64,000 bases of DNA from a virus. Its lineage: Duplodnaviria; Caudoviricetes. Where the stretch lies: the IMG/VR virus record IMGVR_UViG_3300029305_011788, positions 8,227 to 72,226 of that record, one strand, 5' to 3'. A program made the position numbers and the translations under genes. This document shows, piece by piece, positions 14,238 through 54,356 of this stretch; the stretch's first letter is position 1; every line of letters begins with the position of its first letter. The notes below the pieces were generated by a model. It did not search any database, was not told the origin of the DNA, and saw only the letters and a program-made list of their open reading frames with translations.

Positions 14238-14710
14238 CAGCCACCTCCGAGCAATTCATCCATATCGTCAACGGCAGCGTTTTTCATATCCGCACCGGCT
14301 GTGATACGGCTTCTTGCCGCCGGAGTCAGACCGAACTGCTCTGCGATCTTATTCATGATTTTCAGATAGGTCTGAGCAATGGACACCTGCGGAACCTGCT
14401 GCCAGTAGCCGGACTTCGTTTTTACAATCGTACCGTGCTGCGTCATAAATTCCTCGGCTTCCTTCCAACGGGCGTATGCCTGACAGTACGATGCGAATGC
14501 CGCCTGATCGACCTCGGTTAGCACACCGATCTGTTCGAGCTGTTTAGACAGCCTGCGCCATTCCTTTTTCGCTTCCGGCTCCAACCACTTCGGACAAGGC
14601 GGCGCTTTGCGTTCCGGCTTCGGCTCTGCATCATTCAGCGGACGCTTGCCCGGATTTCCTTCCAGCTCTTTGATCGCTGTCGGCTTTGGTTTTCTGCCTC
14701 TCTGAGCCAT
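14237..14710 (-). CDS. terS: Terminase small subunit, P27 family
   Basis: GRKPKPTAIKELEGNPGKR and FGLTPAARSRI motifs. Confidence 0.92.
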   Translation of the reverse strand: MAQRGRKPKPTAIKELEGNPGKRPLNDAEPKPERKAPPCPKWLEPEAKKEWRRLSKQLEQIGVLTEVDQAAFASYCQAYARWKEAEEFMTQHGTIVKTKSGYWQQVPQVSIAQTYLKIMNKIAEQFGLTPAARSRITAGADMKNAAVDDMDELLGGG

Positions 14711-14795
14711 CCGCATCACTCCTTCCTCAAAAAATCTGCATAAAGAAAAGACCTGCATGCTGCAAGCCTCTCCTATGTATAAAACCACCATGAAT

Positions 14796-15059
14796 TTATC
14801 CGTTCAGCATATCCAGCATCAGCCTTGCGCCGTCACGAAAGCCTCTCGTGTAGCTGTCCTCTGAGGTGATCGATTCCATCTGTCGGTGAAGGTCGATCAA
14901 TGCCTCGAATGCTTCCGCAGTATCCGCTTTCATTCCGTCAGCGATCTGATTGTGCAGATCTTCCGCGCGCCCGTTCAGGTTGTCGTAATCGTCCGCCCTG
15001 ACCTTGATATCTGTAGGTGCGCTGATTCTGCCCCGGTATAACTCGCTGATTGCTCCCAT
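14796..15059 (-). CDS. Hypothetical protein (DUF6809-like)
   Basis: AGGAGG RBS; ELYRGRI...GFRDGARL pattern recalled, unverified. Confidence 0.65.
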   Translation of the reverse strand: MGAISELYRGRISAPTDIKVRADDYDNLNGRAEDLHNQIADGMKADTAEAFEALIDLHRQMESITSEDSYTRGFRDGARLMLDMLNG

Positions 15060-15124
15060 CCGCTTCACCTCCTTGCCGTGGGGCGATGGGGCGGCTTTGT
15101 GCTGCCGCCCGCCGTCCGTTTTGT

Positions 15125-15349
15125 TCAGTTGAACTTGTCGAGGAGCATCCGAAGGACTGCCTTGGTGTCCTTGTCAGCCGCCCTGACATCCATGCCCCGG
15201 TCGTAGTTGAAAACCGTCTCGCCGTTGCGCTCAATCCAGATCTTCGAGGCTCTGCCCTCCTTGTAGCCGAACTCGCTGGGCTCCTCGAAGTGCTTCACGC
15301 TGTAGCGGTATTCCCTCCCGTTGTAGTTGATCGTGCCGTGTGTCCACAT
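15125..15349 (-). CDS. Small cassette protein (DUF7678-like)
   Basis: MWTHGTI...NYDRGMD; directly after promoter copy P1. Confidence 0.7.
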   Translation of the reverse strand: MWTHGTINYNGREYRYSVKHFEEPSEFGYKEGRASKIWIERNGETVFNYDRGMDVRAADKDTKAVLRMLLDKFN

Positions 15350-15387
15350 AGTGTTTACCTCGTTCTTTCGTAGTTTTCGGTAGGCTT

Positions 15388-15495
15388 TGCCCTTCCGTTG
15401 TACCCATATTACCATAGGTCGGCGGATATATCAAGCGGCTAAACTGCCAGAATGTGCAGGGCGATTTTTCGGCGTTTGTTGTACATATTATGCCT
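15388..15495 (-). promoter_or_regulatory. Cassette promoter module P1
   Basis: TTGATA-17-TAATAT, upstream TTTAGCCGC and ATGTACA box, leader ACAACGGAAGGGC. Confidence 0.8.
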
Positions 15496-15506
15496 TTCCC
15501 CAGAAG

Positions 15507-15595
15507 GCGCACAGTCGCCCTGTGTGGGCGGCTTTCAGTGTGGGGCAAGTTATCCGCAGGAGCCTCAAAAGCCGCGACACAGGCGAACGTGGCGC
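15507..15595. repeat. Long imperfect hairpin repeat R1 (89 bp)
   Basis: GCGC...TGTGTGGGCGGCTTT / AAAGCCGC..CACAGGCGAACGTGGCGC arms, core GGGCAAGTTATCC. Confidence 0.8.
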
Positions 15596-15635
15596 GGAAC
15601 AGCCCCTCCGCAGAAGGACTGCTCCGTTTTGGCAA

Positions 15636-15908
15636 TCAGCCGCCGTAGTACTCCTCGATGTACTGTGTGCCGTCCTCCTCGGTGACCACGCTGGGGAACC
15701 GTACCTTGTGTCCCTGCTCGGTCATGATGCCCGCGGCAAGGTCGGCGATCTCACCGAGGAATGCCATGTCCCATTCGAGGTCGGGGTTCTCGGTCAGCAC
15801 CTTGCAGAATTCAAAGGCTGCCTCGTAGATGTCATCGTTGCGGTCTGCTTGCGCATCGGTCAGTTCCAGATTCTCGGCTTCGCCGCACTTTGTAGTGTTC
15901 TCGTTCAT
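15636..15908 (-). CDS. Small acidic cassette protein
   Basis: 90 aa, about 22 D/E versus 5 K/R; ACGGAGG RBS after P2. Confidence 0.75.
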   Translation of the reverse strand: MNENTTKCGEAENLELTDAQADRNDDIYEAAFEFCKVLTENPDLEWDMAFLGEIADLAAGIMTEQGHKVRFPSVVTEEDGTQYIEEYYGG

Positions 15909-15949
15909 GTAGATTTCCTCCGTTTTTCGTTGTTTTCGGTTCGGTTTCC

Positions 15950-16050
15950 CGTTCCGTTGTACACACTATAACTCTTTTTTCGCACATTATCAAGCGTGAG
16001 TAATCACGATCATACCGGCTGTTTTTTGCACTGAATTGTGTACATTATAG
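15950..16050 (-). promoter_or_regulatory. Cassette promoter module P2
   Basis: TTGATA-17-TATAGT, ATGTACA box, leader ACAACGGAAC. Confidence 0.7.
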
Positions 16051-16063
16051 CTTGCGGTAAATT

Positions 16064-16152
16064 GCGCCAGAACGCGCAGTGTGGGCGGCTTTTATCTCAG
16101 GGCAAGTGATCCGCAGGAAAGCCGTAAGCCACCACACAGGCGAACGTGGCGC
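16064..16152. repeat. Long imperfect hairpin repeat R2 (89 bp)
   Basis: Same ends (GCGCC... / CACACAGGCGAACGTGGCGC), core GGGCAAGTGATCC. Confidence 0.8.
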
Positions 16153-16155
16153 AAG

Positions 16156-16335
16156 TCAGGGCTTGCTGTTTCTGCCCAGCTCGTAGGCTCTTGCCAGCAT
16201 CATGCGGAGCGTCATTATGCTGACCTCGGTGGTATCCGCATCAATGCCCCGGAAGTCCAGCCCGCCGCGCTCAGCAAGCACAAGGCTTTCTTCCATTGCG
16301 ATCTGCTCCAATGCCTTCTGGATTTCGGTATCCAT
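16156..16335 (-). CDS. 59-aa protein, DUF6900-like (not in ORF track)
   Basis: MDTEIQKALEQIAMEESLVLAERGGLDFRG...ARAYELGR; AAAGGAG RBS; similar to C-terminus of 18497-18862. Confidence 0.7.
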   Translation of the reverse strand: MDTEIQKALEQIAMEESLVLAERGGLDFRGIDADTTEVSIMTLRMMLARAYELGRNSKP

Positions 16336-16389
16336 GTATGCGCTCCTTTCGGTGGATGCCGCCCCTCCGGAGAAGGGCGGCTCGTTTTC

Positions 16390-16752
16390 TCAGCCTGCGA
16401 AGTTTTCAAGGTAGTCGCTGATCGCCTTTGCCGTTTTGGTGTAGTCCGCTGCGGTTGGGCGGTAGCCGTACCACTTGGGGTCATTGTAAGCCGTCCAGAC
16501 GTAAAGCCCGTCGTGCTTGCCCCAAAGGTCCTCGAACTTCACCGTCAGGCTGTCGATCTTGCCCTCGGTGCGGTTCAGCACCGTGATCAGGATGCCGTAG
16601 CGGCGGTCCGCCTCGATGCATCTTGCGAACTCGACCTTCACCGTGGTGGTGTCGGTCAGGCGGGCGATGCAGGCGCTTCCGACCAGCTTGGGGTTCTTCA
16701 TGGCGGTGACCTTTGCGGTCATCTTCTTCAGTTCGGTTTCAAAAAAGTTCAT
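16390..16752 (-). CDS. Hypothetical cassette protein
   Basis: MNFFETELKKM..., 120 aa, ACGGAGG RBS after P3. Confidence 0.75.
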   Translation of the reverse strand: MNFFETELKKMTAKVTAMKNPKLVGSACIARLTDTTTVKVEFARCIEADRRYGILITVLNRTEGKIDSLTVKFEDLWGKHDGLYVWTAYNDPKWYGYRPTAADYTKTAKAISDYLENFAG

Positions 16753-16790
16753 GGTGGAATCCTCCGTTTGTTTTATTCGGCGGGGCGTTT

Positions 16791-16897
16791 GCCCTTCCGT
16801 TGTGTCACATATTACCATGATCTCCCCGGAATAGCAAGCGGCTAAACTACCAGAATGTGCAAGGCGATTTTTCGCTGATTGTTGTACATATTATGCC
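16791..16897 (-). promoter_or_regulatory. Cassette promoter module P3
   Basis: TTGCTA-17-TAATAT (TGG-extended), leader GTGACACAACGGAAGGGC. Confidence 0.8.
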
Positions 16898-16912
16898 GCC
16901 GCCCGAAGGCGC

Positions 16913-16936
16913 GGAGCAGAGCCGAAGCCCTGCCCC
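16913..16936 (-). repeat. 24-nt cUUCGg hairpin, identical copy at 19701-19724
   Basis: GGGGCAGGGC TTCG GCTCTGCTCC at the 3' end of a cassette; no U-tract. Confidence 0.7.
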
Positions 16937-16944
16937 TGATGCGG

Positions 16945-17322
16945 TCAGAGCATTACGCGGATGCCTTCGACCTCGTAGTCGTCCATGACATGATAGTCGT
17001 TGTCGTTGCGGGTAATGGAATCAAGCCCATACACCGTACAGCCGAGCCGTCTCATCTGATGCAGTGCTTCAATCAGAACTGTGGTTTTTGCCGTTACCAC
17101 AATGGTTGTGATATTGGCAATGCGGAGCGTGTTAAGAAAATCCTCCATGTCGCCCTCGTTCGGCAGGTCGGTCACTTCGTACTTGCTGCTGTTGTGACGG
17201 CGGCTGTCCTTGTAGTTCCACAGTGCCTTCCTTGCACCGAGGCTGTAGCCCGACTTCTGACCGTTGCTCTTGCGTTCGTAGATTTTGCGATCCATCTGTT
17301 CAAACGTGTAAATGATATCCAT
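16945..17322 (-). CDS. Hypothetical protein (DUF7698-like)
   Basis: MDIIYTFEQM..., AAAGGAG RBS; family recalled, unverified. Confidence 0.7.
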   Translation of the reverse strand: MDIIYTFEQMDRKIYERKSNGQKSGYSLGARKALWNYKDSRRHNSSKYEVTDLPNEGDMEDFLNTLRIANITTIVVTAKTTVLIEALHQMRRLGCTVYGLDSITRNDNDYHVMDDYEVEGIRVML

Positions 17323-17377
17323 GTATTTTCTCCTTTCGGCATTCGGCTGCCCGGTGAAGGGCAGCCCCGCCTTTGTT

Positions 17378-17734
17378 TTAGTCAATAATGTGCAGCACCA
17401 CCATGCCATTCGGTGTCGGGATGAAGATTTCAGGCTCCCAGAAGATTGCCTTGTACTTTTCGATCTGCTCATCGGTCAGCCCTGTGAAATCCTCGAAGCC
17501 CAGTCCGCAGACGAAGAAGGTACCTTTGATCGGGCCGTATTTCTCAACCGTTCTGTTCCATGCAAGGTCATCGCGGAACAGCCCCTCCTCGTTGCACACA
17601 ACGGCGATGTTGTCGGTTTCGCTCGGATACAAGGCCTGAATGTAGCCATCCACCTCCGCCTGAAGGTTCTCAAGGGTGTGTTCGATGTCCTTGACGTAGG
17701 GGCGCTTGCCGGGTTCGCATACCAGAATTTTCAT
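17378..17734 (-). CDS. DUF3846-like protein
   Basis: MKILVCEPGKRPY, LQAEVDGYIQ, VCNEEG, IKGTFFVCG motifs. Confidence 0.8.
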   Translation of the reverse strand: MKILVCEPGKRPYVKDIEHTLENLQAEVDGYIQALYPSETDNIAVVCNEEGLFRDDLAWNRTVEKYGPIKGTFFVCGLGFEDFTGLTDEQIEKYKAIFWEPEIFIPTPNGMVVLHIID

Positions 17735-17770
17735 GTAGATTCGCTCCTTTTGTATGATTCCGCTTGTCTG

Positions 17771-17870
17771 GCGGTAGTGACATATTAACTCTTTTTCTGC
17801 GATAAGTCCACGCCTTTTCGCAAAATAAATGTACCAGACATGAGCCGATATTTCAGGCGGAATTGTACAT
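17771..17870 (-). promoter_or_regulatory. Cassette promoter module P4 (TGGACT variant)
   Basis: TGGACT-17-TAATAT with ATGTACA box upstream. Confidence 0.7.
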
Positions 17871-17880
17871 CGCAAAGAAC

Positions 17881-17969
17881 GCGCACAGTCGCGCCGTGTG
17901 GGGCGGTTTTCCGCAGTGGCAAGTTATCCGCTGTCGCCATGAAAAGCCCCACACAAGCGAACGTGGCGG
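17881..17969. repeat. Long imperfect hairpin repeat R3 (89 bp)
   Basis: GCGCACAGTCGCGCCGTGTGGGGC / GCCCCACACAAGCGAACGTGGCG. Confidence 0.8.
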
Positions 17970-17970
17970 C

Positions 17971-18249
17971 TTATTCCGCCCTCTGCCGTGCAAGCTCTGC
18001 TCTGAGCTGTGTCAGTTCGCATAGCATCTCAAATGAGCGTCCGTACTGCTCCATGTATGCAGCGATGTCGTAGTCTGCGCAGCACAGCAGCTCGAACTTG
18101 TCGGTCACGCCGTTCTTTCCGACCGTGAACTTTGCCTTTCTCGGAAACTGCCGGTCGAGCGTGCCTTCAAAGCCGTGCTTGTTGAACCAGTCGATTGCGT
18201 ACATCTCCTCGTTGGAAAGTACCCTTGTCGCTTTGATCAGGTCGATCAT
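17971..18249 (-). CDS. Hypothetical cassette protein
   Basis: 92 aa, ATGA overlap with upstream ORF. Confidence 0.7.
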   Translation of the reverse strand: MIDLIKATRVLSNEEMYAIDWFNKHGFEGTLDRQFPRKAKFTVGKNGVTDKFELLCCADYDIAAYMEQYGRSFEMLCELTQLRAELARQRAE

Positions 18250-18434
18250 TCTTTCTCACCTCCGTATTCCTTAAGGTAGGCGTTCACGCGGTCGCCGTAG
18301 CCCATCTCAGCAAGCTCCTGCGGTTCAAGGACTTCCAGAAGTGCTTCCATTGCAATCCGCTCAGTGAGCAGTCCATCCGTTGAAAGGTTCGCAATGATTG
18401 CGGTCAGGCATCTGACCTGTTCGTATGTATCCAT
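18246..18434 (-). CDS. Hypothetical cassette protein
   Basis: 62 aa, GGAGG RBS. Confidence 0.65.
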   Translation of the reverse strand: MDTYEQVRCLTAIIANLSTDGLLTERIAMEALLEVLEPQELAEMGYGDRVNAYLKEYGGEKE

Positions 18435-18496
18435 GTTCTTTCCTCCTTCGGGTTTGGCAGCCCCTCCCTGCGGAAGGGCTGCGCTGCTCCGTTCGT

Positions 18497-18862
18497 TTAC
18501 TTGCTCTTGCGTCCTGCCTCATAGGCTTCTTTCAGGGCTGCTTCCAGTCCCCAGACCGAAACCTCGATGAAGTCCTCGCGGTCGCAGTGGCGGGTTTCGA
18601 GGTCTCCGCGCTCGGCTACCAGAATCAGGTGCTTTGCGGCAATCTCGTAGACCTTCTTGTCGATGCCCTCCAGCGGATGCTCGGCTCTCTGCAGCTCGCG
18701 CTCGTATTTGGCGATGCTGCTGTCCATGTTCTTCAGTGCCTGCGCCTTTGAGATACCGTAGACCTCAAGGCAGACCTCTTCGGTCATCTGCTCGGTGGCG
18801 GCTCTGCCGTTCCGCAGGAAGTTCAGGGTGGTCTTGATCTCGTTCAGCTTTTTCTTGGTCAT
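18497..18862 (-). CDS. Protein with C-terminal DUF6900-like domain
   Basis: DLETRHCDREDFIEVSVWGLEAALKEAYEAG motif; after P5. Confidence 0.75.
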   Translation of the reverse strand: MTKKKLNEIKTTLNFLRNGRAATEQMTEEVCLEVYGISKAQALKNMDSSIAKYERELQRAEHPLEGIDKKVYEIAAKHLILVAERGDLETRHCDREDFIEVSVWGLEAALKEAYEAGRKSK

Positions 18863-18902
18863 GGTGGTGTACCTCCGTTTTTTGTTTTCGGCTGGGCTGT
18901 CT

Positions 18903-19003
18903 GCCCTTCCGTTGTGTCACATATTACCATGATCTTTCCGGAATAGCAAGCGGCTAAATGTACAGAATGAAATCGGCGTATCTTCGTCATTTGTTGTACA
19001 TAG
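18903..19003 (-). promoter_or_regulatory. Cassette promoter module P5
   Basis: ATGTACA-N30-TGTACATTTAGCCGC-TTGCTA-17-TAATAT-GTGACACAACGGAAGGGCAGACAGCCC. Confidence 0.85.
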
Positions 19004-19032
19004 TACACCATGCCCACAGGAAGTTCACAAAT

Positions 19033-19120
19033 GCGCCAGAATGCGCCGTGTGGGGCGGTTTTCCGCAGGGGCAAGTTCATCGCTCACCGCAGGAAAACCG
19101 CACACAGGCGAACGTGGGGC
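19033..19120. repeat. Long imperfect hairpin repeat R4 (88 bp)
   Basis: GTGTGGGGCGGTTTTCC / GGAAAACCGCACAC arms, core GGGGCAAGTT. Confidence 0.8.
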
Positions 19121-19146
19121 AAGCCAGCCCCGCAGGGCTGAACTTG

Positions 19147-19530
19147 TCAGCCCTCGGTCGGCGGAATCCACTGTCCCGTCCTTTCATCGAAAAGGTAGTA
19201 ATACGGGATGCCCCAGTCGTCTCTCATCAGCGAAACAACGCTCTTGTGGGTGACCGCAGGCTGCATCGGCTCGTTGCGGTCGCGGTGGTATGCAACCGTC
19301 ACGCCCTCCGCGGGCTTCTCGAAGCTGTGCGGCTCGTCCGCATCCGGCGCAAGGCGCTCACCGAGGATGCTGATGTCTCCGAGGGCAAGCAGCGCCTTGA
19401 CCTTCTCTGCGGTGTTGTAATGCTCGGTGAGGATCGGCATCTGGTGGTCGGGGTAGCCGTCCCAGTGGCAGTAGATCGTTTCCGTGGTGCCGTCCTCGTG
19501 CAGGATGCCGATTCTTGAATTCGTGCTCAT
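19147..19530 (-). CDS. Hypothetical cassette protein (STNSRIG...IYCHWDGYP type)
   Basis: Own promoter P6 and RBS; motif recalled from phage hypothetical proteins. Confidence 0.75.
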   Translation of the reverse strand: MSTNSRIGILHEDGTTETIYCHWDGYPDHQMPILTEHYNTAEKVKALLALGDISILGERLAPDADEPHSFEKPAEGVTVAYHRDRNEPMQPAVTHKSVVSLMRDDWGIPYYYLFDERTGQWIPPTEG

Positions 19531-19571
19531 GTTCATAGACCTCCGTTTTTTTTGTTTTCGGCGGGCTGTCT

Positions 19572-19686
19572 GCCCTTGCCGTTGTGTCACATATTACCAT
19601 GATCTAGCCGATAAGTCCACGTCTATGTGCAAAATAAATCGTAGAAGAATCGCCGTATTCACCCTTTCGTATTGTCGGATGTACAC
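19572..19686 (-). promoter_or_regulatory. Cassette promoter module P6 (TGGACT variant)
   Basis: TTTATTTTGCACATAGACG-TGGACT-17-TAATAT-GTGACACAACGG. Confidence 0.8.
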
Positions 19687-19732
19687 ATGAGTGAAAGGGT
19701 GGAGCAGAGCCGAAGCCCTGCCCCTGTTGCGT

Positions 19733-20227
19733 TCACCCCTTCAGCTCATCCTCGGTCATCAGCCTGAAGTTTTTGTCCTGCCAGAAGGAAATGTAAACAT
19801 CGTAGCGGACATCCCATTCGCTTTCGTAATATTCGTCTGCTTCCTCATCGTATTCCTCGCTGGTCTCGACCTCTGTATAGCTGTAGACCTCTCTCTGCTC
19901 GAAGCCCTCGCCCCAGCCGTCGCTGTACTGTCCGCTGAGGTATTCCTTGAGCTGTGCTGTGTCATCATCCGTCCAGTCGTCATCTACCTCGCAGGTGGCA
20001 AGTCCGTAGAGCTTTCTGCCAACCCACTCTGCGCTCATTGTGACCTTGTGGAGCTTTTTGTAGTAGGTTGCGCCGTGGTAGTCGTCTGCGTACTCGGCAA
20101 GGTCGGTATTGTCGTTCTCCAGTGTTTCGATAAGCTCTGCGGCGTACTCCTCGGCGGGGGCTGTGAAGCAGTTGCTTTCGCTTGCAATCTGGGCAATCAG
20201 CGGATTGTAAATTTTCAGGGTTTTCAT
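19733..20227 (-). CDS. Very acidic cassette protein
   Basis: 164 aa, about 41 D/E versus 13 K/R; GQYSDGWGEGFEQ motif. Confidence 0.8.
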   Translation of the reverse strand: MKTLKIYNPLIAQIASESNCFTAPAEEYAAELIETLENDNTDLAEYADDYHGATYYKKLHKVTMSAEWVGRKLYGLATCEVDDDWTDDDTAQLKEYLSGQYSDGWGEGFEQREVYSYTEVETSEEYDEEADEYYESEWDVRYDVYISFWQDKNFRLMTEDELKG

Positions 20228-20265
20228 GGTGGTGTACCTCCGTTTTTGTTTTCGGCGGGCTGTCT

Positions 20266-20374
20266 GCCCTTCCGTTGTGTCACATATTACCGCCTTTTGC
20301 CTGAAAAGTCCACGCCTATGTGCAAAATAAATCGTAGAAGAATCGCCGATTTTCGCAGTTATAACTGGTACATA
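20266..20374 (-). promoter_or_regulatory. Cassette promoter module P7 (TGGACT variant)
   Basis: Near-identical upstream part to P6; TGGACT-17-TAATAT; same leader as P5. Confidence 0.8.
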
Positions 20375-20483
20375 TACCAACGCCCCACAGGAGGCTCACA
20401 AACGCGCCGTGTCGCGCCCGAAATCCTCCCAACAAACAAGCGGCGCAGAGCCGTAGAGCCCCACACCGCCCGTTGTACGCCCC

Positions 20484-20687
20484 TTATTCGGGAATGTACT
20501 TGTCGTGGATGATGCCGAGGATCTTGTCCTGTTCATCGATGCTGATGCCCATGCTTTCGAGGGCTTCCCTCGTGCCGCAGTCGGGGCAGATCAGTGTATC
20601 GTTGTCGTAGCGGGACAGCGCCGGTCGCTCGGTGTAGGTGCGTCCGCACTTGGGGCATTTGCGTGGTTCGTTTACTCGGTCTTTCAT
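20484..20687 (-). CDS. Small zinc-ribbon protein
   Basis: CPKC...ICPDC, PALSRYDN motif. Confidence 0.8.
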   Translation of the reverse strand: MKDRVNEPRKCPKCGRTYTERPALSRYDNDTLICPDCGTREALESMGISIDEQDKILGIIHDKYIPE

Positions 20688-20738
20688 TTGAATTCCTCCT
20701 ATGTAGTTGGTGGTGTGCCGCCCGAAGGCGGCAGGCTG

Positions 20739-21002
20739 CTATTCTTCGGTTCGTTCGGTGTGGCTGAGGATCTCTGCGGCGCTGCCCGACTCTGCGTATC
20801 CGCAGTCCCAGATGGCGAGGAGCATCTCCTCGTCGGTTTCGGGAACCTTGATGCTGTAGGTGATCTTCCGTGCCCGAATGTCGATCAGCATCTTGGTGGT
20901 GATCTCAAGGAAGTCGGCGGGGATCTCTCTGGTCGTGCCGTCCTTTGCGATCAGGCGGACTCCGTGGCGGCGAAGGCTTTCAATATGTTCTTGGCTGGTC
21001 AT
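20739..21002 (-). CDS. Hypothetical cassette protein
   Basis: 87 aa, AAAGGAG RBS after P8. Confidence 0.7.
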   Translation of the reverse strand: MTSQEHIESLRRHGVRLIAKDGTTREIPADFLEITTKMLIDIRARKITYSIKVPETDEEMLLAIWDCGYAESGSAAEILSHTERTEE

Positions 21003-21030
21003 GTTCAGGACTCCTTTGCGTTATTTTCCC

Positions 21031-21132
21031 TTGCGGTAGTGACATATTAACTCTTTTCGGGGCTGATTGCAAGCGGCTAAATGTACAGATCATGATGGGC
21101 GATTTTTCGGCAGTCATTGTTCAATTTATGCC
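21031..21132 (-). promoter_or_regulatory. Cassette promoter module P8
   Basis: TGTACATTTAGCCGC-TTGCAA-17-TAATAT. Confidence 0.8.
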
Positions 21133-21144
21133 TTGCCCACATTT

Positions 21145-21235
21145 GCGCCGTGTCGCGCTGTGTGGCGCGGTTGACTGAGATGGGATAACCGTTCGGAGGA
21201 TACCCCTTCCGCCCCACACGGGGCGACGTGGGCGC
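21145..21235. repeat. Long imperfect hairpin repeat R5 (91 bp)
   Basis: GCGCCGTGTCGCGCTGTGTGG / CCACACGGGGCGACGTGGGCGC. Confidence 0.7.
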
Positions 21236-21287
21236 TGTGTGTGCGCCCGTGCCGTTCCGCTTTGCATCCGCCCCGCAGGGCAGGCCG

Positions 21288-22232
21288 TTAAGGCCTGCCG
21301 AAGCGGAATGCGTTGTCGCCAGTCAGGTTTTCAGTTAAAACCGTTCTGGCAGTCTCGAACTCGGCTCCGATAAAGCCCATTCTCATCAGCCAAGTCCGCA
21401 TTGCGAACTTTTTGTTTTCCTTCTGCTGTTCCTTGGGGCTTGCGCTTCTGAGGTCCTTTGCCATCTGGCTCATTGCGAGGCAAAGCTGAATGTAGCTCTT
21501 GAGCTTGCCTGCGTGGAGTCCGTTCTGCTTGCCGTTGGAAGGCGGTGCGAACTGGAAAAGTCTGAACTCGACCGTGCCTTTTGTGAAGGTCGCGTGCAGG
21601 TTGAGCATGTGGTATCGGCTGCCGTTGTAGTGGTGCGTTCTGCCGCTGCTGTAGCCCTGCGAACCGTACCAGATGTCCGCAAGCTGTGCCATCGTGCGGG
21701 GCTTTCTGCGGTTGAGCTGTTCAAGGAATCGCGGGTCAACCGTTCTGCAATACTGGCTCATTCTGTAGCTGTCAACCTTGATTGCCTCGGCGATCAGCGT
21801 TTCGTGGCTTGCCATGATGTTCGCAAGGTTTCTGAGGCTCTGCGGTGTGTGTCCCTGTGCGCCGATGTGAATGTGGACTCCGCATCCTCTTGTGTAGTCG
21901 CTCTTTGCGCCTGCCTTGCGGAGTCTTCTCACAAGCTCCTGCAGGGTTTCGATGTCTGCGTAGTGCAGGATCGGTGTGACCAGTTCGCACTTTTCGCTGT
22001 CGGAGCCTGCGATGCTGACATCCTTCTGGAACTTCCACTCGCGTCCCTGTGCGTCCCATGCGCTGTAGGTTTCGTAGCCGTTGCGGTGGCCTGTGTACTC
22101 GGTGCGGTCTGTGCCGAAGAACTCGGCGGCAAGCTGTGCGGCAGCCTTGCGGGTGATGTTGTTCATCTCGATCTCAACCCCAATGGTCTGCTCCTTCATT
22201 CTGTTGATCTGCTGTGCGGTCTTCTCAGTCAT
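21288..22232 (-). CDS. Putative amidoligase (COOH-NH2 ligase type 2)
   Basis: GVEIEM, KDVSI, CELVTPIL, CGVHIHIG, YHMLNL, TVEFRLF motifs. Confidence 0.9.
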   Translation of the reverse strand: MTEKTAQQINRMKEQTIGVEIEMNNITRKAAAQLAAEFFGTDRTEYTGHRNGYETYSAWDAQGREWKFQKDVSIAGSDSEKCELVTPILHYADIETLQELVRRLRKAGAKSDYTRGCGVHIHIGAQGHTPQSLRNLANIMASHETLIAEAIKVDSYRMSQYCRTVDPRFLEQLNRRKPRTMAQLADIWYGSQGYSSGRTHHYNGSRYHMLNLHATFTKGTVEFRLFQFAPPSNGKQNGLHAGKLKSYIQLCLAMSQMAKDLRSASPKEQQKENKKFAMRTWLMRMGFIGAEFETARTVLTENLTGDNAFRFGRP

Positions 22233-22269
22233 TTTTGTATCCTCCGTTTCGGTTTTCGGTGGGCTGTCT

Positions 22270-22370
22270 GCCCTTCCGTTGTGTCACATATTACCGTCTT
22301 TCGGAGGATATATCAAGCGGCTAAATGTACAGATCATTTCGGTGTATTTTTCCCGTATCTCTGGTACTTT
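22270..22370 (-). promoter_or_regulatory. Cassette promoter module P9
   Basis: TGTACATTTAGCCGC-TTGATA-17-TAATAT-GTGACACAACGGAAGGGCAGACAGCCC. Confidence 0.85.
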
Positions 22371-22412
22371 TACATACTTGATAAACTTGCAATTCTATGG
22401 TAAACTTGGATA

Positions 22413-22510
22413 CGATGGAATAGGTTCTCACATTTTCGGGAGCCCCAGTGCGGTATAAAATCGGCGGTCGGGAAGGCAGAAATCCAGCCCTGCCATTCCG
22501 CCGTTTTTTC
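22413..22510 (+). ncRNA. Candidate ~100-nt small RNA
   Basis: TTGATA(22378)-17-TAAACT promoter, 5' hairpin GGTTCTC/GGGAGCC, long 3' hairpin followed by T6; no ORF. Confidence 0.5.
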
Positions 22511-22511
22511 T

Positions 22512-22982
22512 TTATCTATACAGATGCCTTGTGCTTTGCTCGTAGGCTTCGTAGAGGAATTCGGGATCGAATCCGAATGACCGATAACCTGTCACGCAAG
22601 TCCAGAAGTATCGGGGTGTCGGTTCTCCGAGCCGTCGCTTTTCATTCATGATGTACAGAAAGCCGTTTGTCATCACCGTCCTGCCGCTTGCAGTGCGGAA
22701 CACCGGGAGTCTGATCTCCTTTTTATAGTAGCAGACCGGGCAGCCTTCGTAGCGATCGAGCATCTTCTCATGCTCCGCTGTGACCTCCCAGACCGCGATT
22801 GGAACAACGCCGTCCGGCTTCGGCTCGATGGTCAGGTAGAATCCGGTCTTGCTGCCTTTGAAGAGCAGCTCGTAACCTTCGAGCAGCGCCGTTCCTACCG
22901 GCTTTGCACCGGGGCATCGCATCTGCATCTGTCTGCGGTTGAGGTTGCTCCCGTAGGCGAGGTAGTATCTTTTCTTGCTCAT
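22512..22982 (-). CDS. Gamma-glutamylcyclotransferase (AIG2-like) 1
   Basis: YLAYGSNL and LDRYEG motifs. Confidence 0.9.
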   Translation of the reverse strand: MSKKRYYLAYGSNLNRRQMQMRCPGAKPVGTALLEGYELLFKGSKTGFYLTIEPKPDGVVPIAVWEVTAEHEKMLDRYEGCPVCYYKKEIRLPVFRTASGRTVMTNGFLYIMNEKRRLGEPTPRYFWTCVTGYRSFGFDPEFLYEAYEQSTRHLYR

Positions 22983-23019
22983 GTGATCTCCTCCGTTCAG
23001 GGTATTTGGCGGGCATCCT

Positions 23020-23126
23020 GCCTTGCCGTTGTGTAGCATATTACCATACCCTGCGGAGGTTATCAAGCGGGTAAATGTACAGATCATAACGGGCGATTCC
23101 TCGCCGTTTGTTGTGCATATTACGCC
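23020..23126 (-). promoter_or_regulatory. Cassette promoter module P10
   Basis: ATGCACA-N30-TGTACATTTACCCGC-TTGATA-17-TAATAT. Confidence 0.8.
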
Positions 23127-23138
23127 TTGCCGTAAAAC

Positions 23139-23226
23139 GCGCCGTGTCGCGCTGTGTGGGGCATAAACCGTAACGGAGTAACTGTCGGAGGATACCCGCA
23201 AAGCCCCACACAGGCGAGCGTGGCGC
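23139..23226. repeat. Long imperfect hairpin repeat R6 (88 bp)
   Basis: GCGCCGTGTCGCGCTGTGTGGGGC / GCCCCACACAGGCGAGCGTGGCGC. Confidence 0.8.
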
Positions 23227-23238
23227 ATTTGTGCGCGT

Positions 23239-23655
23239 TCAGCGGCCGGACAGAGATTCCTGCCGAGCCTGTTCGAGAAAGGTCATTTCAAGACCGTTCA
23301 TTTCATATCCCTCGCGGATGATGCTGTAGTAGCCGGGGCTGGGCGGTCGGACTCCCTTGCTGTTCATAATGTAGACCATCGCATCAACGGTCTTGCCGTT
23401 CAGCTCGACCTGCACTGTCTCCCTGCGGTAAAGGTGCGGGTAGCCCTCGTAGCGGTCAAGCGGAATCTCATCCGCAGGCTTGATGTTCCAGAGCAGAACG
23501 GGAACGCTGCGGTCGGGATCGGGCTCGATGGTCGCCACGCCGTTGAATACCAGCCGGTAGCCGTAGAGCGTACTTGTGCCGAGGACTTCGGCTGTGGGGC
23601 AGCGCCGCTGCATCTGCCCGATGTGAAGGTTTGAGCCATAGGCTAAGTAGATCAT
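23239..23655 (-). CDS. Gamma-glutamylcyclotransferase (AIG2-like) 2
   Basis: MIYLAYGSNL and LDRYEGYP motifs. Confidence 0.9.
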   Translation of the reverse strand: MIYLAYGSNLHIGQMQRRCPTAEVLGTSTLYGYRLVFNGVATIEPDPDRSVPVLLWNIKPADEIPLDRYEGYPHLYRRETVQVELNGKTVDAMVYIMNSKGVRPPSPGYYSIIREGYEMNGLEMTFLEQARQESLSGR

Positions 23656-23894
23656 GATTTTTCCTCCTCGTTGGTGATGATTGTGAATTCGTCTGCGCCT
23701 TCGATCAGGGAAAGCGTTCTGCCGTTGTCCCATTTCATATGGACATTGCCGGCATCGTCAATATAATCAACGGAACCGGTCGTTCCGGGCGGAATGGGTG
23801 CGTAGGGATCGTCCATGTGATTCAGGCGGATGCGGGTGCCTGCGGGATAACGCTCCCGCAGGGCTTTCAGTTCATGTTCATTCGGAAACCGCAT
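23652..23894 (-). CDS. DUF4314-like protein
   Basis: LRERYPAGTRIRLNHMDDPY...WDNGRTLSLI. Confidence 0.8.
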   Translation of the reverse strand: MRFPNEHELKALRERYPAGTRIRLNHMDDPYAPIPPGTTGSVDYIDDAGNVHMKWDNGRTLSLIEGADEFTIITNEEEKS

Positions 23895-24870
23895 CGTACT
23901 CTTCCTCCTCGGTGGTCTGTGCGGCTGCCTTTGCCGCCTCACGCTTTGCCTTTTGGCGCTCCGTCCATTTTGCCTTTTCCTCATCGTTGCGGAAAGCGGT
24001 ATGCCCGGTCAGATGCTCCAGAAGGATGCGGCGGTCGGTCTTGTGGTCTGCGCCGCCGAAGCCGATGCGTACCAGCCAGACGCGCATTGCGTACTTCTCG
24101 TTGCTGTCATCGACATCCTTTGCCTGCACGCGCTTCTGCGTCAGTGCCATGCTGTTCATCGCTGCGGCGAGGTTCGTGAATGCCTGCACATGGTCGGCAT
24201 CCGGCGCTTCACCAAAACCGTCAAAGATGAGCTTGTCATCGGCAAATCGGATGCCCTTCAGTTCAGGGTTCGTTTCTTCCCATTCTCTGATAAAGGCGAT
24301 CAGCTCGTAAGTGCTGCGGAACTCATGTCCGCCAATCTCATCCACAAGGCTCTTATCGGCGGCGAATGCTCCGCAGGTCGCCTTGCTGAGAAGTGCGCCC
24401 CTTGCGTGGATCATGCAGATGAGGTTCGTGAGGCTCTGCACCGTGTGGTCAGCCAGCGGAAGTGCGACCGTTACCGCAATCGGGAAGCCGTCCGTTTCGG
24501 TCTCCGGCTCATTGTCATTGGTGACCTCTTCATCGGTGTCCGGCGTATCCTCCTCGGTGTCGGAAATGATGGTCACATCAATCTCGACATAGTCCTCTTC
24601 GGCTTCCGTTACGGTATCCGTTCCTGCCGGCGGAGTGATTGTCTCGCCGTTGTAGCCTGCATCGGCAAGTCCGTCCAGCACCTTCTCCACGATCTCGGTG
24701 TCGCTGCGGTCGGTGAAGCTGAGGACCGCGTCCTTGCCGAGGGTAAAGATGTCGATCTGGTAGGCGCAGCTCGGAACGCCGAGGTACTTGACCTCTGCAC
24801 CGATGATCTCTGCGATTTTCTGTGCCAGTGCCTTGCGCTGGCTCTTTTCGATATTGTACTTGATTTCCAT
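23878..24870 (-). CDS. Hypothetical protein with amidoligase-like C-terminal segment (often labelled virulence-related)
   Basis: YLGVPSCAYQI N-terminus; NEKYAMRVWLVRIGF...LTGHTAFR. Confidence 0.8.
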   Translation of the reverse strand: MEIKYNIEKSQRKALAQKIAEIIGAEVKYLGVPSCAYQIDIFTLGKDAVLSFTDRSDTEIVEKVLDGLADAGYNGETITPPAGTDTVTEAEEDYVEIDVTIISDTEEDTPDTDEEVTNDNEPETETDGFPIAVTVALPLADHTVQSLTNLICMIHARGALLSKATCGAFAADKSLVDEIGGHEFRSTYELIAFIREWEETNPELKGIRFADDKLIFDGFGEAPDADHVQAFTNLAAAMNSMALTQKRVQAKDVDDSNEKYAMRVWLVRIGFGGADHKTDRRILLEHLTGHTAFRNDEEKAKWTERQKAKREAAKAAAQTTEEEEYDAVSE

Positions 24871-24930
24871 AATAAAACCTCCGTTTTTACTGCCGCCCCT
24901 TGCGCCTTGTGCGCTTGGGCTGCGGCGTTT

Positions 24931-25024
24931 TCGTAGTCACATATTACCGCCTTTTGCCCCGGAATGCAAGACTGTAAAACGGAGAATGTACGGGGCATAT
25001 CCGCCCCTGTGATTGTGCATAATA
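24931..25024 (-). promoter_or_regulatory. Cassette promoter module P11
   Basis: ATGCACA-N30 box, TTGCAT-17-TAATAT. Confidence 0.7.
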
Positions 25025-25034
25025 CGAGTGTAAA

Positions 25035-25101
25035 AAAGAAGCCTGCGGCAGAACATCTGATTTAGTATCAGAACGTTCACAATTTGCTGCAAGGCTTCTT
25101 T
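25035..25101. terminator. Long hairpin, likely bidirectional terminator insulating the cassette array
   Basis: AAAGAAGCC...GGCTTCTTT outer stem, TCTGAT/ATCAGA inner stem. Confidence 0.55.
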
Positions 25102-25817: not shown

Positions 25818-28289
25818 TCACTTTTGTGTATCTCTCTGCGCTGCCCATGCGATGCCGGAAAGCACGAAGTATACGACCGGCTCTGAGACACCGTTGCCCC
25901 ACAGCTTGTACTCCGCTGAATCCGTGTACGGATCAGCCAGCCATTTTCTGATCTGCTTTTCCGTTTTCGGCTTGCCCTTGGGATTGGTGATTTGCCGCCA
26001 TGTTTCCCAGACCTCCGTCCAGAAAGCGATCTCCTCATCGGAAGGATCAGTAATTGCAAGGTCGGCACACCACCAGTCAGGGAATCCCTGTAATCGTGCA
26101 CATTCAACGGGAGTCAAGCGGCGTACAATATATACCGGCTCGTCATTCGGAAGGTCGTTTACAAGCGGAGGATCCTTCCTGTCGGAAGCGACAAGCGTGT
26201 TTGCTTGTTCATGCGCAGCGACCGTGTGGTGTGAATTCTTGCTTGTGCAGTAATGATCTGCGGGGGCTGCGACTGTTGCAGTTCCTCTTGCAACAGCCGT
26301 AACGGATACATCCTCCGAAACGGCGAAGTGATTGTCGCGGGAGATTGTGAAGGAGGGATCAGGCGCGGCTACGCAATGGCGATCTGCGGTATTCAACGTG
26401 AAACATACATCCTCGTTGATGCCATCACCCTGCGGACCGTTTTGATCGGCACGACCGATCATTGAGCCTTGCAGAGCGTAGGTCTCCGGCTCAGCTACCA
26501 CAACAGCCTGCTGATTATCCCCGGCATTTGCACGGAGCGTACCACTTTTGCCGTCACTATATACATGACCGCCGATGCGGGATGCCGCCCCCGGTTCGAG
26601 AGCGACCACCGCAACTCCTCCATGATTCGAGTCTGGCGATCCCTCGCCGGTATCAAGGCATCGTGAAATCTGCGTCGGGTAGCAATGCCCACGAGCGTTT
26701 TTCGTGCCGTCCGATGTGAAACGCACATCGAATGTTTCCGGCGCAGGTGCTACCACGCAGATGCCGCCCTGATTCGATGTGACCGAATTTCCGCCGCTTT
26801 GGTCGAGTGTCCTGCTTGTGGTCGCTTCATAGAAACCGCTGTGCGGATTGTCCGACATCATCGCATTGGAATGCTTGCTGCATACACCGAAGGCATGGAT
26901 ATCCGGCTGGAAGAGCGTCTGGTCATTATTCGTACCGAGCGTTGCTGACTTGTCGGTCTGCCAGAGAGCGCCCTTGCCTCCACCGCTGCACCCCGCCCTT
27001 ATCTTCAGCGTGACAGGTTCAGCGACAAGTGGCGTATTGTTTCCGCCTGTTCCGGCTCGTCCGCAGAGCGTCTGAAACACACCGTCGGGATTGATTTTCG
27101 CTCTTCCGTCCGTGGGATTATTCTCCACCACAAGCGGCTGATTGTTGCCGCCCATGCCGTAGGTAGCAGTCACAGGCTGGGCTACTTCCAGAGGTCCTCT
27201 GAATCGGCTGTCTTGCCCGTGATTTTCATAAAGTTCCATTGCCGCCGGAACGACACCGGCTCTCAGCGTCGGGGAGACTTCCTCCTCGTAACCGATGCTC
27301 CGAGCCTTTGCGCTGTGTTCGGTTGAGAATCCCGCCGCCTGCAGGACACCGTTTCTGCCGGTTGACATTCCGCAGTTCACACCGAGCGTTGCTGCGGTAT
27401 CATCTGTAACCGCAGCATTGTAGCCGTCAATGCCGACCGCATGAAGCACCGCCGGATGATTGCCGTGATCCTGTGCGACCAGAGCGAGCGCCTTGTCCTC
27501 GGTGATGCCGACACCGGAATTGCCCTGCGGATTCAGGCAGAGGGTTCCACCTCCAGCGTCAGACCGCCCGCCTGTCTCTCCAGCGCTTTCCGCAGCACCT
27601 CCGGCAGTTCCTTGCCACGAACGGAAGCCCTGCGGAGTATACCCAGACACGCCTTCGGACTTAAATAGTATTTCTCCGGCACTTCCGCCAGCAAAATCTG
27701 CGACAAGGTAGATTCTTGCTCTGCGCTGGGGGACACCCCAGTATTGAGCGTCGAAAACTCGGTAAGCCACGCTCCATCCGTTTCCCAGATATACGTCTGA
27801 TTTTGCCCATCTGTGATTCTCAGGCGCAGGCACCTCGATCCCTTTTTCTTTAACTCCGATAACTGCTTCGAGGACAGCTTTGAAATCGTCTCCTCCGTTG
27901 GAGGAGAAAGCGCCGGGGACGTTCTCCCAGACGCAGTATCGCGGGTATTGTCCATTTGTTGCATCCCTCATTTCTTTGATGATGCGAATCGCCTGAAAGA
28001 ACAGGTTCGACCGATCACCGTCATGGATTCCGGCACGCTTGCCCGCAATGGACAGGTCCTGACACGGGCTGCCGAAGGTGATGATATCCACCGGCGGAAG
28101 CTCCGCACCGTTCAGCGTAGATACATCGCCGTAGTGCTTCACCTGTGGAAGCCGTCTGTGCGTGACAAGTACCGGAAAAGGTTCAATTTCGCTGCTCCAC
28201 TTCGGCTCGATCCCTGCGAGGATGCCGCCAAGCGGAAAACCGCCGGAGCCGTCAAACAGGCTGCCGAGCGTCAGATGTTTTGTTTTCAT
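25818..28289 (-). CDS. C5 cytosine DNA methyltransferase with greatly expanded variable region
   Basis: SLFDGSGGF, FGSPCQD, WENVPG, QRRARI, RRLTPVECARLQGFPD, KLWGNGV. Confidence 0.92.
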   Translation of the reverse strand: MKTKHLTLGSLFDGSGGFPLGGILAGIEPKWSSEIEPFPVLVTHRRLPQVKHYGDVSTLNGAELPPVDIITFGSPCQDLSIAGKRAGIHDGDRSNLFFQAIRIIKEMRDATNGQYPRYCVWENVPGAFSSNGGDDFKAVLEAVIGVKEKGIEVPAPENHRWAKSDVYLGNGWSVAYRVFDAQYWGVPQRRARIYLVADFAGGSAGEILFKSEGVSGYTPQGFRSWQGTAGGAAESAGETGGRSDAGGGTLCLNPQGNSGVGITEDKALALVAQDHGNHPAVLHAVGIDGYNAAVTDDTAATLGVNCGMSTGRNGVLQAAGFSTEHSAKARSIGYEEEVSPTLRAGVVPAAMELYENHGQDSRFRGPLEVAQPVTATYGMGGNNQPLVVENNPTDGRAKINPDGVFQTLCGRAGTGGNNTPLVAEPVTLKIRAGCSGGGKGALWQTDKSATLGTNNDQTLFQPDIHAFGVCSKHSNAMMSDNPHSGFYEATTSRTLDQSGGNSVTSNQGGICVVAPAPETFDVRFTSDGTKNARGHCYPTQISRCLDTGEGSPDSNHGGVAVVALEPGAASRIGGHVYSDGKSGTLRANAGDNQQAVVVAEPETYALQGSMIGRADQNGPQGDGINEDVCFTLNTADRHCVAAPDPSFTISRDNHFAVSEDVSVTAVARGTATVAAPADHYCTSKNSHHTVAAHEQANTLVASDRKDPPLVNDLPNDEPVYIVRRLTPVECARLQGFPDWWCADLAITDPSDEEIAFWTEVWETWRQITNPKGKPKTEKQIRKWLADPYTDSAEYKLWGNGVSEPVVYFVLSGIAWAAQRDTQK

Positions 28290-28303
28290 TTATTCCTCCT
28301 GAC

Positions 28304-28948
28304 TCAGACGTACTCGATGCGCCTGTCAGATTTTTGAAGCACGATAAAATACGCATGATACTTGCGGCTGTGCTTCTGATTCCGCTTTTGCCAGTCAGCT
28401 ACCAGTCGGCTTTTCGCAAGCAGTACAAACAGGTCTTTCGGATAAAAGCCGATCTTCACCGCCTCGTTGATGATATACACATGGCTCAGATGCTGCCTGC
28501 CGCTGCTGACCTTGTCCTGACACTTGAAGATCAGGATGCCGTCCGGTTTCAGAACTCTGTATGCCTCGGAAAGCATATCCGAATAGCATCGGTGCAGGCT
28601 CTTTTCATCGGGATATACACCGAAACGCCTGTTGATAATGTTGCCATCAGTTCCGTTCAGCGATTTCCCTTTGGTCGCCAGAAACGGCGGATCGAGCATC
28701 ATGCACGAAATACTACTGTCCGCAAGCGGAAGATGCCTTGCATCCGCCTGTACCACATCGCTCCGCTGCGGAGATATGTCAAATCGGTACTGTGGCAGAG
28801 CGATGTCCGTTCCGTTGTAGAAAGTCCCTGTGCTGAAGGTCGGATCGCAATCGATCTTTCCCTCCGGCACATGGAGCTTTAGAATGTTACGGATGATCTC
28901 GCCCTGATCGTAGCCGATGCTTTTTACAAGGTCAGGCATCGGTCGCAT
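28304..28948 (-). CDS. Compact amino-methyltransferase (DPPF)
   Basis: DPTFSTG SAM-binding-like motif, QADARHLPL, LDPPF, RVLKPDG. Confidence 0.75.
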   Translation of the reverse strand: MRPMPDLVKSIGYDQGEIIRNILKLHVPEGKIDCDPTFSTGTFYNGTDIALPQYRFDISPQRSDVVQADARHLPLADSSISCMMLDPPFLATKGKSLNGTDGNIINRRFGVYPDEKSLHRCYSDMLSEAYRVLKPDGILIFKCQDKVSSGRQHLSHVYIINEAVKIGFYPKDLFVLLAKSRLVADWQKRNQKHSRKYHAYFIVLQKSDRRIEYV

Positions 28949-54137: not shown

Positions 54138-54356
54138 GTCTTTCCCCCTGTTTACTGTTATAGTCCTGTGTCTCCTGATATGCTCTCTTGTTCTCTTCAC
54201 ATCTGTAGTTTCAACAGCAGTAAATACCTTTTGGCGAAGGCGGGGTCACAACCATAGAACAGAAACAGTATGCGGTGATTGTTCATATGTCATATAAGCC
54301 TGACAAAGCTTCCGCGCCGAATCGTTCATATGTTCGTTTTTGTCTGCGTGTTTCCC

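Follow-up and report, generated by a model that had tools for sequence, protein, structure and literature searches.

Among the described phage systems, those closest to the locus reported here are the promoter-early stem-loops (PeSLs), the 'mobile regulatory cassettes' of T4-type myoviruses (Arbiol et al., 2010, PMC2839356; Comeau et al., 2014, PMC4122927). Our locus lies in a 64-kb window, i.e. the whole stretch of 64,000 nucleotides that was analysed (positions 8,227 to 72,226 of the 72-kb IMG/VR provirus record IMGVR_UViG_3300029305_011788), and consists of a module, a promoter-plus-leader unit of about 150 bases, which is repeated ahead of eleven small-gene cassettes and of the DNA-packaging genes. 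This array is markedly non-random, and its conservation extends across a lineage of phages. Judged from its genes, the element carrying it is a temperate siphovirus-like prophage, with a Ruminococcus-type gut bacterium as its host, and is probably kin to 'Ca. Heliusvirales'. Three other arrangements come close to parts of this design. In the late region of phage lambda, the promoter PR' is followed by the terminator tR', which is overcome by Q antitermination, and morons or stx genes insert downstream; the morons of lambdoid phages, a concept of Juhala and Hendrix, are autonomous promoter-gene-terminator units lying between phage genes; and the host-takeover module of phage SPO1 groups many small genes with multiple early promoters for the host sigma factor and with terminators.

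By analogy, PeSLs would be the nearest counterpart of our modules, in function and not by descent. In both systems, a repeated intergenic unit combines a sigma-70-type promoter, a stem-loop that acts or is predicted to act as a terminator or attenuator, and a Shine-Dalgarno sequence with its start codon; both front small and mostly uncharacterised genes; and in both, the indels and replacements between related phages terminate in the repeats. We liken the modules to PeSLs because indel junctions fall in the repeats, which is the same argument as was made for PeSLs, and the analogy drawn in the original prediction, made from the sequence of this DNA alone, thus holds for the position of the indel end-points and for the composite of predicted promoter and stem-loop, as a likeness of function only. 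The two systems nevertheless differ in several respects. They have no sequence relationship, and the modules are found in a temperate siphovirus-like prophage of Gram-positive anaerobes, whereas the hosts of PeSLs are lytic T4-like phages. The unit is longer here, with about 150 nt, or about 250 nt when the large hairpin is included, and its transcribed leader is conserved and opens with a covarying hairpin, a feature that descriptions of PeSLs do not include. Finally, the modules form a single block of mostly conserved order beside terS, the small terminase gene, and one copy fronts the packaging operon, while PeSLs lie in dispersed hyperplastic regions. The SPO1 cluster of small genes behind multiple promoters and terminators is similar in its general aspect, but SPO1 is lytic, its promoters do not repeat a single unit of 150 nt, and it is not described as taking part in the exchange of cassettes. 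No description of the module was found in the literature on repeated promoters in Ruminococcus prophages or in the Heliusvirales paper; the words 'promoter', 'intergenic', 'sigma' and 'transcription' do not occur in the published description of that lineage that was searched.

To define the modules, eleven -10 boxes were located by a regular-expression scan and by alignment, and an nhmmer profile was built from these 11 copies. The original prediction of eleven repeated modules between 15125 and 25024 is borne out and extended: the profile recovers exactly 12 copies in the window (E-values from 6e-16 to 7e-38), 11 on the minus strand and one on the plus strand, with no further module in the window, and none in the 8.4 kb of the record that lie outside it. 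The minus-strand copies are P1 (24869-25027, first T of the -10 box at 24946, E 5e-20, also placed by alignment), P2 (22981-23127, -10 at 23043, E 3e-33), P3 (22230-22373, -10 at 22293, E 1e-30), P4 (21000-21133, -10 at 21049, E 5e-24), P5 (20225-20365, -10 at 20289, E 2e-30), P6 (19528-19674, -10 at 19596, E 7e-28), P7 (18860-19010, -10 at 18926, E 7e-38), P8 (17732-17875, -10 at 17787, E 6e-16), P9 (16750-16897, -10 at 16814, E 8e-38), P10 (15906-16051, -10 at 15970, E 4e-20) and P11 (15347-15495, -10 at 15411, E 1e-29), which heads a DUF7678 gene. The twelfth copy, P12 (32317-32464, plus strand, E 3e-29), lies outside the predicted span and in the opposite orientation. The open reading frame (ORF) of 62 aa behind it (32462-32650, plus strand) overlaps by 44 nt the 3' end of the convergent nrdG gene (32607-33074, minus strand); five loci have conserved it, with substitutions, and it is therefore likely to be a genuine gene.

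The core of the module has the features of an ordinary promoter. As predicted, all 11 minus-strand modules have a -35 element, TTGnnn or TGGACT (the latter in P5), an exact 17-nt spacer and a -10 box, which is TAATAT in ten of them and TATAGT in P10. A conservation profile over 211 unique copies, from the window and its relatives, shows that the best-conserved positions are the TTG of the -35 element, G-14, T-12, A-11, T-7 and G-6, and that 79% of the -10 boxes read TAATAT; the sequence of the spacer is unconstrained. Housekeeping factors of the sigma-70 family touch the -35 TTG, G-14, T-12, A-11 and T-7 in extended -10 promoters. From this match we infer promoter activity, and the module promoter would be of the sigma-A type, read by the polymerase that carries the main sigma factor of the host.

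Upstream of the core, the modules are less uniform than was first proposed. A common motif, ATG(T/C)ACA-N30-TGTACATTTAGCCGC, had been ascribed to all eleven, but the exact 15-mer TGTACATTTAGCCGC is present only in P3, P4, P7 and P12, while P2 has it with a single mismatch. In P9 and P11 the upstream box has diverged, P5, P6 and P8 have a second upstream type (type B), and P1 and P10 show a loose similarity. Of the 211 unique copies, 99 have a TGYACA-type box near position -50 and 82 have one near -85. The density of TGTACA is 33 times higher in modules than elsewhere, and all five copies of TGTGACACA, a palindrome that overlaps the start site and contains a TGYACA-type box, lie inside modules.

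The leader is conserved well past the needs of a ribosome site. It is about 56 nt long (median 56), and GGAGG stands 7-9 nt before the ATG in 140 out of 170 copies. ACAACGG, which was expected in most leaders, is indeed found in 8 of the 11 in the array; P4 has an alternative leader type, GTCACTACCG, and P8 also has an alternative leader. Within its first 25-30 nt, the leader starts with a two-step stem-loop of the form CGG..GGGC-loop-GCCC.CCG. The 167 unique leaders fold better than their shuffles (mean z -3.1), with more than 20 different complementary stem sequences. RNAalifold gave no consensus on a MAFFT alignment of the leaders, because hairpins of differing length were misaligned, and a covariance-model alignment was used in its place. 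In this alignment, which is fitted to the model, 96.4% of the cells pair and compensatory changes are seen at 5 of the 7 pairs; none of 500 shuffles matches the observed pairing and slid controls reach at most 57%. The stem starts 2-4 nt from the predicted 5' end, assuming that transcription begins 6-8 nt past the -10 box. In Firmicutes, a hairpin at that position shields the mRNA from decay that depends on its 5' end. The leader hairpin could thus be a 5' stabiliser of the mRNA or a site for protein binding. An Rfam scan of the whole window gave no match at the gathering threshold, either for the leader and the hairpins or elsewhere.

Stable hairpins are found at every cassette 3' end and ahead of every module, with a U-tract in some cases only. 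The GC hairpins that had been noticed at the cassette ends are real, and six of them belong to one family of imperfect hairpins of about 95 nt: 23133-23229 (between cassette 1 and P2), 21143-21230 (cassette 3/P4, a diverged copy, nhmmer E 3e-4, also supported by its fold), 19028-19123 (cassette 6/P7), 17875-17972 (cassette 7/P8), 16058-16156 (cassette 9/P10) and 15502-15597 (cassette 10/P11), all on the minus strand and, apart from the diverged copy, identified by fold and profile. The family amounts to 107 copies in 39 sources, 95 of which lie at most 40 nt upstream of a module, and it accompanies about a third of modules overall, with a mean fold z of -2.9. RNAalifold on a MAFFT alignment gave only a local stem for this large hairpin, and a consensus fold was used instead. 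At the upstream border of the array, a canonical intrinsic terminator (25029-25101, minus strand; A-tract, long hairpin and U6; -30 kcal/mol, z -6.0) closes the methylase/SLOG operon upstream of P1. As this predicted terminator adjoins P1, the array would be insulated from the upstream methylase operon, and its cassettes would therefore depend on their own promoters. The other border of the array is terS.

All the cassettes are on the minus strand and contain mostly short genes. Cassette 1 (23239-24870) encodes a 330-aa amidoligase-related protein (23878-24870), a DUF4314 protein (23652-23894) and a GGACT/AIG2 protein (23239-23655); cassette 2 (22512-22982) a GGACT/AIG2-like protein of 156 aa, with a hairpin and U-tract at its end; cassette 3 (21288-22232) an Amidoligase_2 protein of 314 aa (E 3e-58); cassette 4 (20484-21002) an orphan of 87 aa and a zinc-ribbon protein of 67 aa; and cassette 5 (19733-20227) an acidic orphan of 164 aa. 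Cassette 6 (19147-19536) encodes a 129-aa protein of phrog_1987, a family of unknown function; cassette 7 (17971-18862) a DUF6900 protein (121 aa) and orphans of 62 and 92 aa; cassette 8 (16945-17734) DUF3846 (118 aa) and DUF7698 (125 aa) proteins; cassette 9 (16156-16752) an orphan of 120 aa and a DUF6900 protein of 59 aa; cassette 10 (15636-15908) an acidic orphan of 90 aa; and the first gene of cassette 11 (15125-15349) is the DUF7678 gene (74 aa). The cargo had been described as unrelated, which does not hold for all of it: there are two GGACT paralogues and two DUF6900 proteins, and the 330-aa protein and the amidoligase have a common C-terminus. A sequence search of the PDB with the 164-, 129- and 118-aa proteins gave no match, the Atlas returned only an unnamed viral cluster, and nothing was found in a literature search on the DUF names; these searches yielded neither a function for the orphans and DUF proteins nor a link to defence evasion, and the anti-defence cargo of the original prediction is thus unsupported.

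The module is widespread in related elements. The exact pattern TGTACATTTAGCCGCTTG-N20-TAATATG is found in 59 stretches of IMG/VR, and a near-identical pattern in 32 bacterial-genome stretches, mostly of Ruminococcus and Oscillospiraceae and including the chromosome of R. callidus ATCC 27760. The profile recovers 290 further copies in 59 related viral contigs, with up to 13 per locus, and arrays are present in genome loci as well; R. callidus ATCC 27760, for instance, has two prophages (L084 and L085), in each of which 4-5 modules adjoin terL. The module plus hairpin had no match among GenBank phages and PLSDB plasmids, and a megablast of the whole array returned terS only, in three phages. 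The genes behind 302 modules were called, their products were clustered into 82 families, and arrangements were compared in the 42 loci with at least three modules. These 42 loci show 40 different arrangements; for pairs of families seen in at least three loci, gene order is nonetheless constant in 188 out of 216, the 28 inconsistent pairs involving DUF7698, GGACT, F4 and F13/F18/F24. The profile scan of relatives that the original prediction had called for thus found the variable content that was expected, but an order that is mostly fixed.

Change between relatives consists mainly of the gain, loss and replacement of whole cassettes, with junctions in the modules. When the array of the window was aligned to those of its relatives and indels of at least 250 nt were located, 73 of the 112 junction ends fell in module-bearing intergenic DNA, which makes up 25% of the length, and most of the remaining ones at gene ends. 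Junctions are spread across the hairpin, the boxes, the core promoter and the leader. Several indels are exact 'module plus cassette' units lying between duplicated module sequence (72, 138 and 177 nt in relatives, 110-240 nt in the window). For example, the P5 leader (20220-20291) matches both flanks of a two-cassette insert of 1.4 kb in L055 and L010, and sequence matching P9 (16760-16897) borders a 470-nt cassette on either side in L060, L055 and L038. Conversely, L056 is without cassette 10 of the window, and L023 and L009 are without cassettes 5 and 6, the junctions being within modules. The array had been described as shuffled by recombination: the exchange of whole cassettes at repeats is supported, but 'shuffled' is too strong a word for an order that is largely collinear.

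All these observations can be brought together if the modules are portable 'start of expression' units and the array a set of eleven self-contained mini-operons, the same units doubling as joints for gene exchange, which we consider probable, with appreciable room for doubt. Each unit would comprise at least one GC hairpin marking the end of the cassette before it, which in a third of copies has the conserved imperfect form of about 95 nt, often with a U-rich tail; a promoter for the main sigma factor of the host (TTGnnn, 17 nt, G at -14, TAATAT); a leader of about 56 nt with the small two-step 5' stem-loop; and GGAGG 7-9 nt ahead of the ATG. The last module would additionally feed the packaging operon across a hairpin or terminator. 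Being direct repeats, the units of about 150 nt could serve as joints, at which whole promoter-plus-gene units would be deleted, inserted or replaced between related phages, the order being otherwise kept. Co-regulation of the cassettes, as originally proposed, is a fair inference because they share one promoter/leader design.

Several points weigh against these mini-operons and joints. Within a locus, paralogous modules are only about 62% identical, and their identity is the same within a locus (0.62) as between loci (0.61), while modules ahead of the same gene family reach 0.75. Concerted evolution of the modules within a genome was looked for and not seen. The equal values give no sign of frequent conversion between copies, so that homologous exchange would have to rely on short identical stretches; by the same comparison, the units appear to travel mostly with their genes. 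In addition, the junction events cannot be counted as independent, since they have a common ancestry, and junctions at gene ends are equally expected from illegitimate recombination followed by selection. The pairing of the large hairpin is kept chiefly by sequence conservation, with little covariation. A generic promoter scan found 14 sigma-70-like sites in the region where 11 are expected, i.e. no excess over shuffles, and listed only 4 of the 12 modules at 9 or more matches out of 12; generic promoter and terminator scans were judged uninformative here. Finally, the modules have nothing in common with the repeats at the CI switch (54.3-54.6 kb), and no CI-type operator is evident in them by eye. 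Without such an operator, an unaided promoter of the host type would be on in the lysogen, which is awkward for a module placed ahead of terS unless the hairpin after the DUF7678 gene terminates transcription.

This last point leads to the packaging operon. It starts with the DUF6809 gene (14796-15059) and terS (14237-14758; span 14237-15059, minus strand), followed by terL, and is without a promoter of its own: P11 is the sole promoter seen upstream of DUF6809-terS-terL, and a GC hairpin (15089-15110, minus strand) separates the DUF7678 gene from DUF6809/terS. A hairpin follows the last small gene in every lineage. At the counterpart of this position in L063, L009, L023, the Blautia phage NatCom_2932 and the provirus G007, the last small gene is followed by a canonical U-tract terminator, which lies too close to terS for a promoter to fit in between. 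G007 (L121 16780-17400), whose TerS and TerL share about 90% aa identity with those of the window, has almost no array, and keeps just before terS one degenerate module (-10 box GAACAT), an ORF of about 85 aa and the canonical terminator. By analogy with PR'/tR' of lambda, the late operon thus probably depends on read-through of transcripts begun at the last module, which makes the 'early' label of the original prediction doubtful. That label is unsupported, and the position of P11 points to a late or regulated role at least as much as to an early one. The likeness to PR'-tR' lies in a promoter of the host type, a short transcribed stretch and a terminator directly before the late operon, and in the accumulation of accessory cargo; the differences are that no Q-like protein, Q-binding element (QBE) or pause element was identified here, and that there are twelve copies instead of one.

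The modules could accordingly be a promoter class under phage control for a late or middle switch, and not free-running early promoters, an alternative that we take seriously but regard as rather unlikely. The target of an activator or repressor would be the TGYACA boxes (near -85, near -50 and, as TGTGACACA, over the start site), or an antiterminator would be loaded at the leader hairpin, and either factor would lead to read-through of the hairpins into the packaging operon, as in PR'/tR'/Q of lambda, with the cargo riding along. The position of P11 as the only promoter upstream of DUF6809-terS-terL, the absence of any module beyond the twelve from the 72-kb record, the terminators before terS, the module-like promoter retained by the nearly arrayless G007, the conservation of the leader and the concentration of TGTACA and TGTGACACA in modules all speak for such a switch. 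So does an early protein of 234 aa (50120-50824, minus strand), a candidate transcription regulator with a C-terminal helix-turn-helix (HTH) of sigma-70 region 4. This protein shows a weak match to a 'positive control sigma-like factor' model, and homologues of it occur in 5 of the 5 complete relatives that bear modules. Yet the conserved core positions match those of a normal housekeeping promoter, including a good -35 TTG, and promoters of this kind can usually do without an activator; only about half of the copies have the TGYACA boxes, whose enrichment comes from common descent; no Q-, N- or put-like element was identified; and the 234-aa protein is not a true sigma factor and is also found in G007, which lacks the common R1-type leader. 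The idea that a phage sigma factor reads the modules was rejected, as this protein has no region 2, its N-terminal domain in an AlphaFold2 (AF2) model of moderate quality is mixed alpha/beta (pLDDT 63.5) and not sigma-2-like, and its link to the modules is imperfect. A narrower and more speculative form of this idea, to which we give little credence, is that the leader, with its ACAACGG, its GNRA-like hairpin and CCGAAAAC, would be a cis-acting RNA site behind every module which, like nut or put, makes the polymerase terminator-resistant by means of a phage factor, the array being a late-gene switch. If so, each module would express its own cassette only before the switch, transcription from all eleven would pass the hairpins and enter the 25-kb packaging/late operon lacking its own promoter after it, and new genes would plug into the late switch by carrying a copy of the module.

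Two further explanations start from the cassettes rather than from the packaging operon. Like morons, the cassettes are autonomous units among phage genes, each made up of one to three genes with a promoter of their own and a hairpin resembling a terminator; the predicted terminator beside P1 would insulate them from the lytic early operon, and the promoters and repeats of the CI switch share no obvious operator with them. They could thus be lysogenic-conversion units, which the prophage would express while repressed and from which the lysogen would profit (e.g. superinfection exclusion or host modification). We find this improbable, since all the units are co-oriented with the lytic genes and the last one runs into the packaging genes. 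Moreover, morons are one-off insertions with unrelated promoters, whereas one homologous promoter/leader is used here, and most cassette families are backbone genes whose order is kept across the lineage, unlike sporadic additions; the amidoligase/GGACT/DUF4314 set is present even in a Blautia Heliusvirales phage. An integron-like array, in which the hairpins of about 95 nt would be attC-like sites for the site-specific recombination of folded single strands, is hardly credible. The row of small, co-oriented genes separated by long, imperfect and shape-conserved hairpins at cassette 3' ends is reminiscent of integrons, whose cassettes had been named as an analogue in the original prediction. 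There is, however, no IntI-type integrase, the sole tyrosine recombinase of the window (61323-62396) being about 36 kb away and matching a generic phage integrase family; every cassette has its own promoter in place of a common Pc; the hairpin family is found at only 6 of the 11 junctions; and the junctions are scattered over the module, without a single fixed crossover point. The portable mini-operons, with their units doubling as joints, therefore remain the reading that we prefer.

The wider gene content is in agreement with the temperate phage that was originally proposed. Pfam annotation of the proteins of the window identifies a terminase, portal, capsid and tape measure protein, the integrase, and a CI-like repressor with HTH and S24 domains (54574-55563), which has divergent consensus promoters. 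The leftward lytic operon encodes a single-stranded DNA-binding protein (SSB), a family-A polymerase, a helicase, a MazF-like protein, a D5 primase, MetK, NrdDG and four DNA methylases; it is followed by the array and then by DUF6809, terS, terL, portal, ClpP protease, capsid and tape measure genes. terS is 75% identical at the nucleotide level to that of Blautia/Faecalimonas phages classed in Ca. Heliusvirales, and the layout shared with members of this group includes the MazF-like gene, a methylase, amidoligase/GGACT/DUF4314 and terS. In one of these phages, a short stretch ahead of terS is homologous to the array (F1a-like protein, amidoligase, GGACT and DUF4314), with promoters that are only weakly similar. 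A tRNA scan of the whole window found none.

Some other features of the window are also worth recording. Immediately upstream of the array (25818-31964, minus strand) are four DNA methyltransferase genes, encoding a C5 enzyme of 823 aa, two N6/N4 enzymes and a ParB-N6/N4 fusion, followed by a YspA/SLOG-like gene. Our crude gene caller left a stretch of 788 nt (29905-30692) without a called gene; its sequence looks coding, and a gene whose ribosome site is weak was probably missed there. The large terminase (11571-14237, minus strand) is 888 aa long, and its recognisable ATPase and nuclease domains are preceded by a LAGLIDADG_3 domain (residues 303-370), which probably represents an intein or the insertion of a homing endonuclease. 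Within the replication module, a PemK/MazF-like toxin gene is found at 41192-41698 (minus strand), and a MazF-like gene is annotated at the equivalent place in NatCom_2932. At the lysis-lysogeny switch (54300-54570), two perfect TTGACA-17-TATAAT promoters diverge, and an inverted repeat, TGTATTCA...TGAATACA, directly follows the -10 box of the one on the repressor side.

Finally, our results suggest that the principle of PeSLs, in which a single repeated promoter/terminator unit is both an expression signal and a joint for gene exchange, is not confined to lytic T4-like phages, and that it extends to widespread temperate phages of gut and rumen Clostridia, probably kin to Ca. Heliusvirales. 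They define about 80 families of cargo genes that these phages treat as interchangeable. With its promoter, 5' hairpin and strong ribosome site, the module would be a ready-made and naturally validated expression unit for Ruminococcus and its relatives, which are short of genetic tools. The link between the last module and a packaging operon lacking its own promoter would, in addition, open late-gene control to direct tests in R. callidus ATCC 27760, a host that is in culture.

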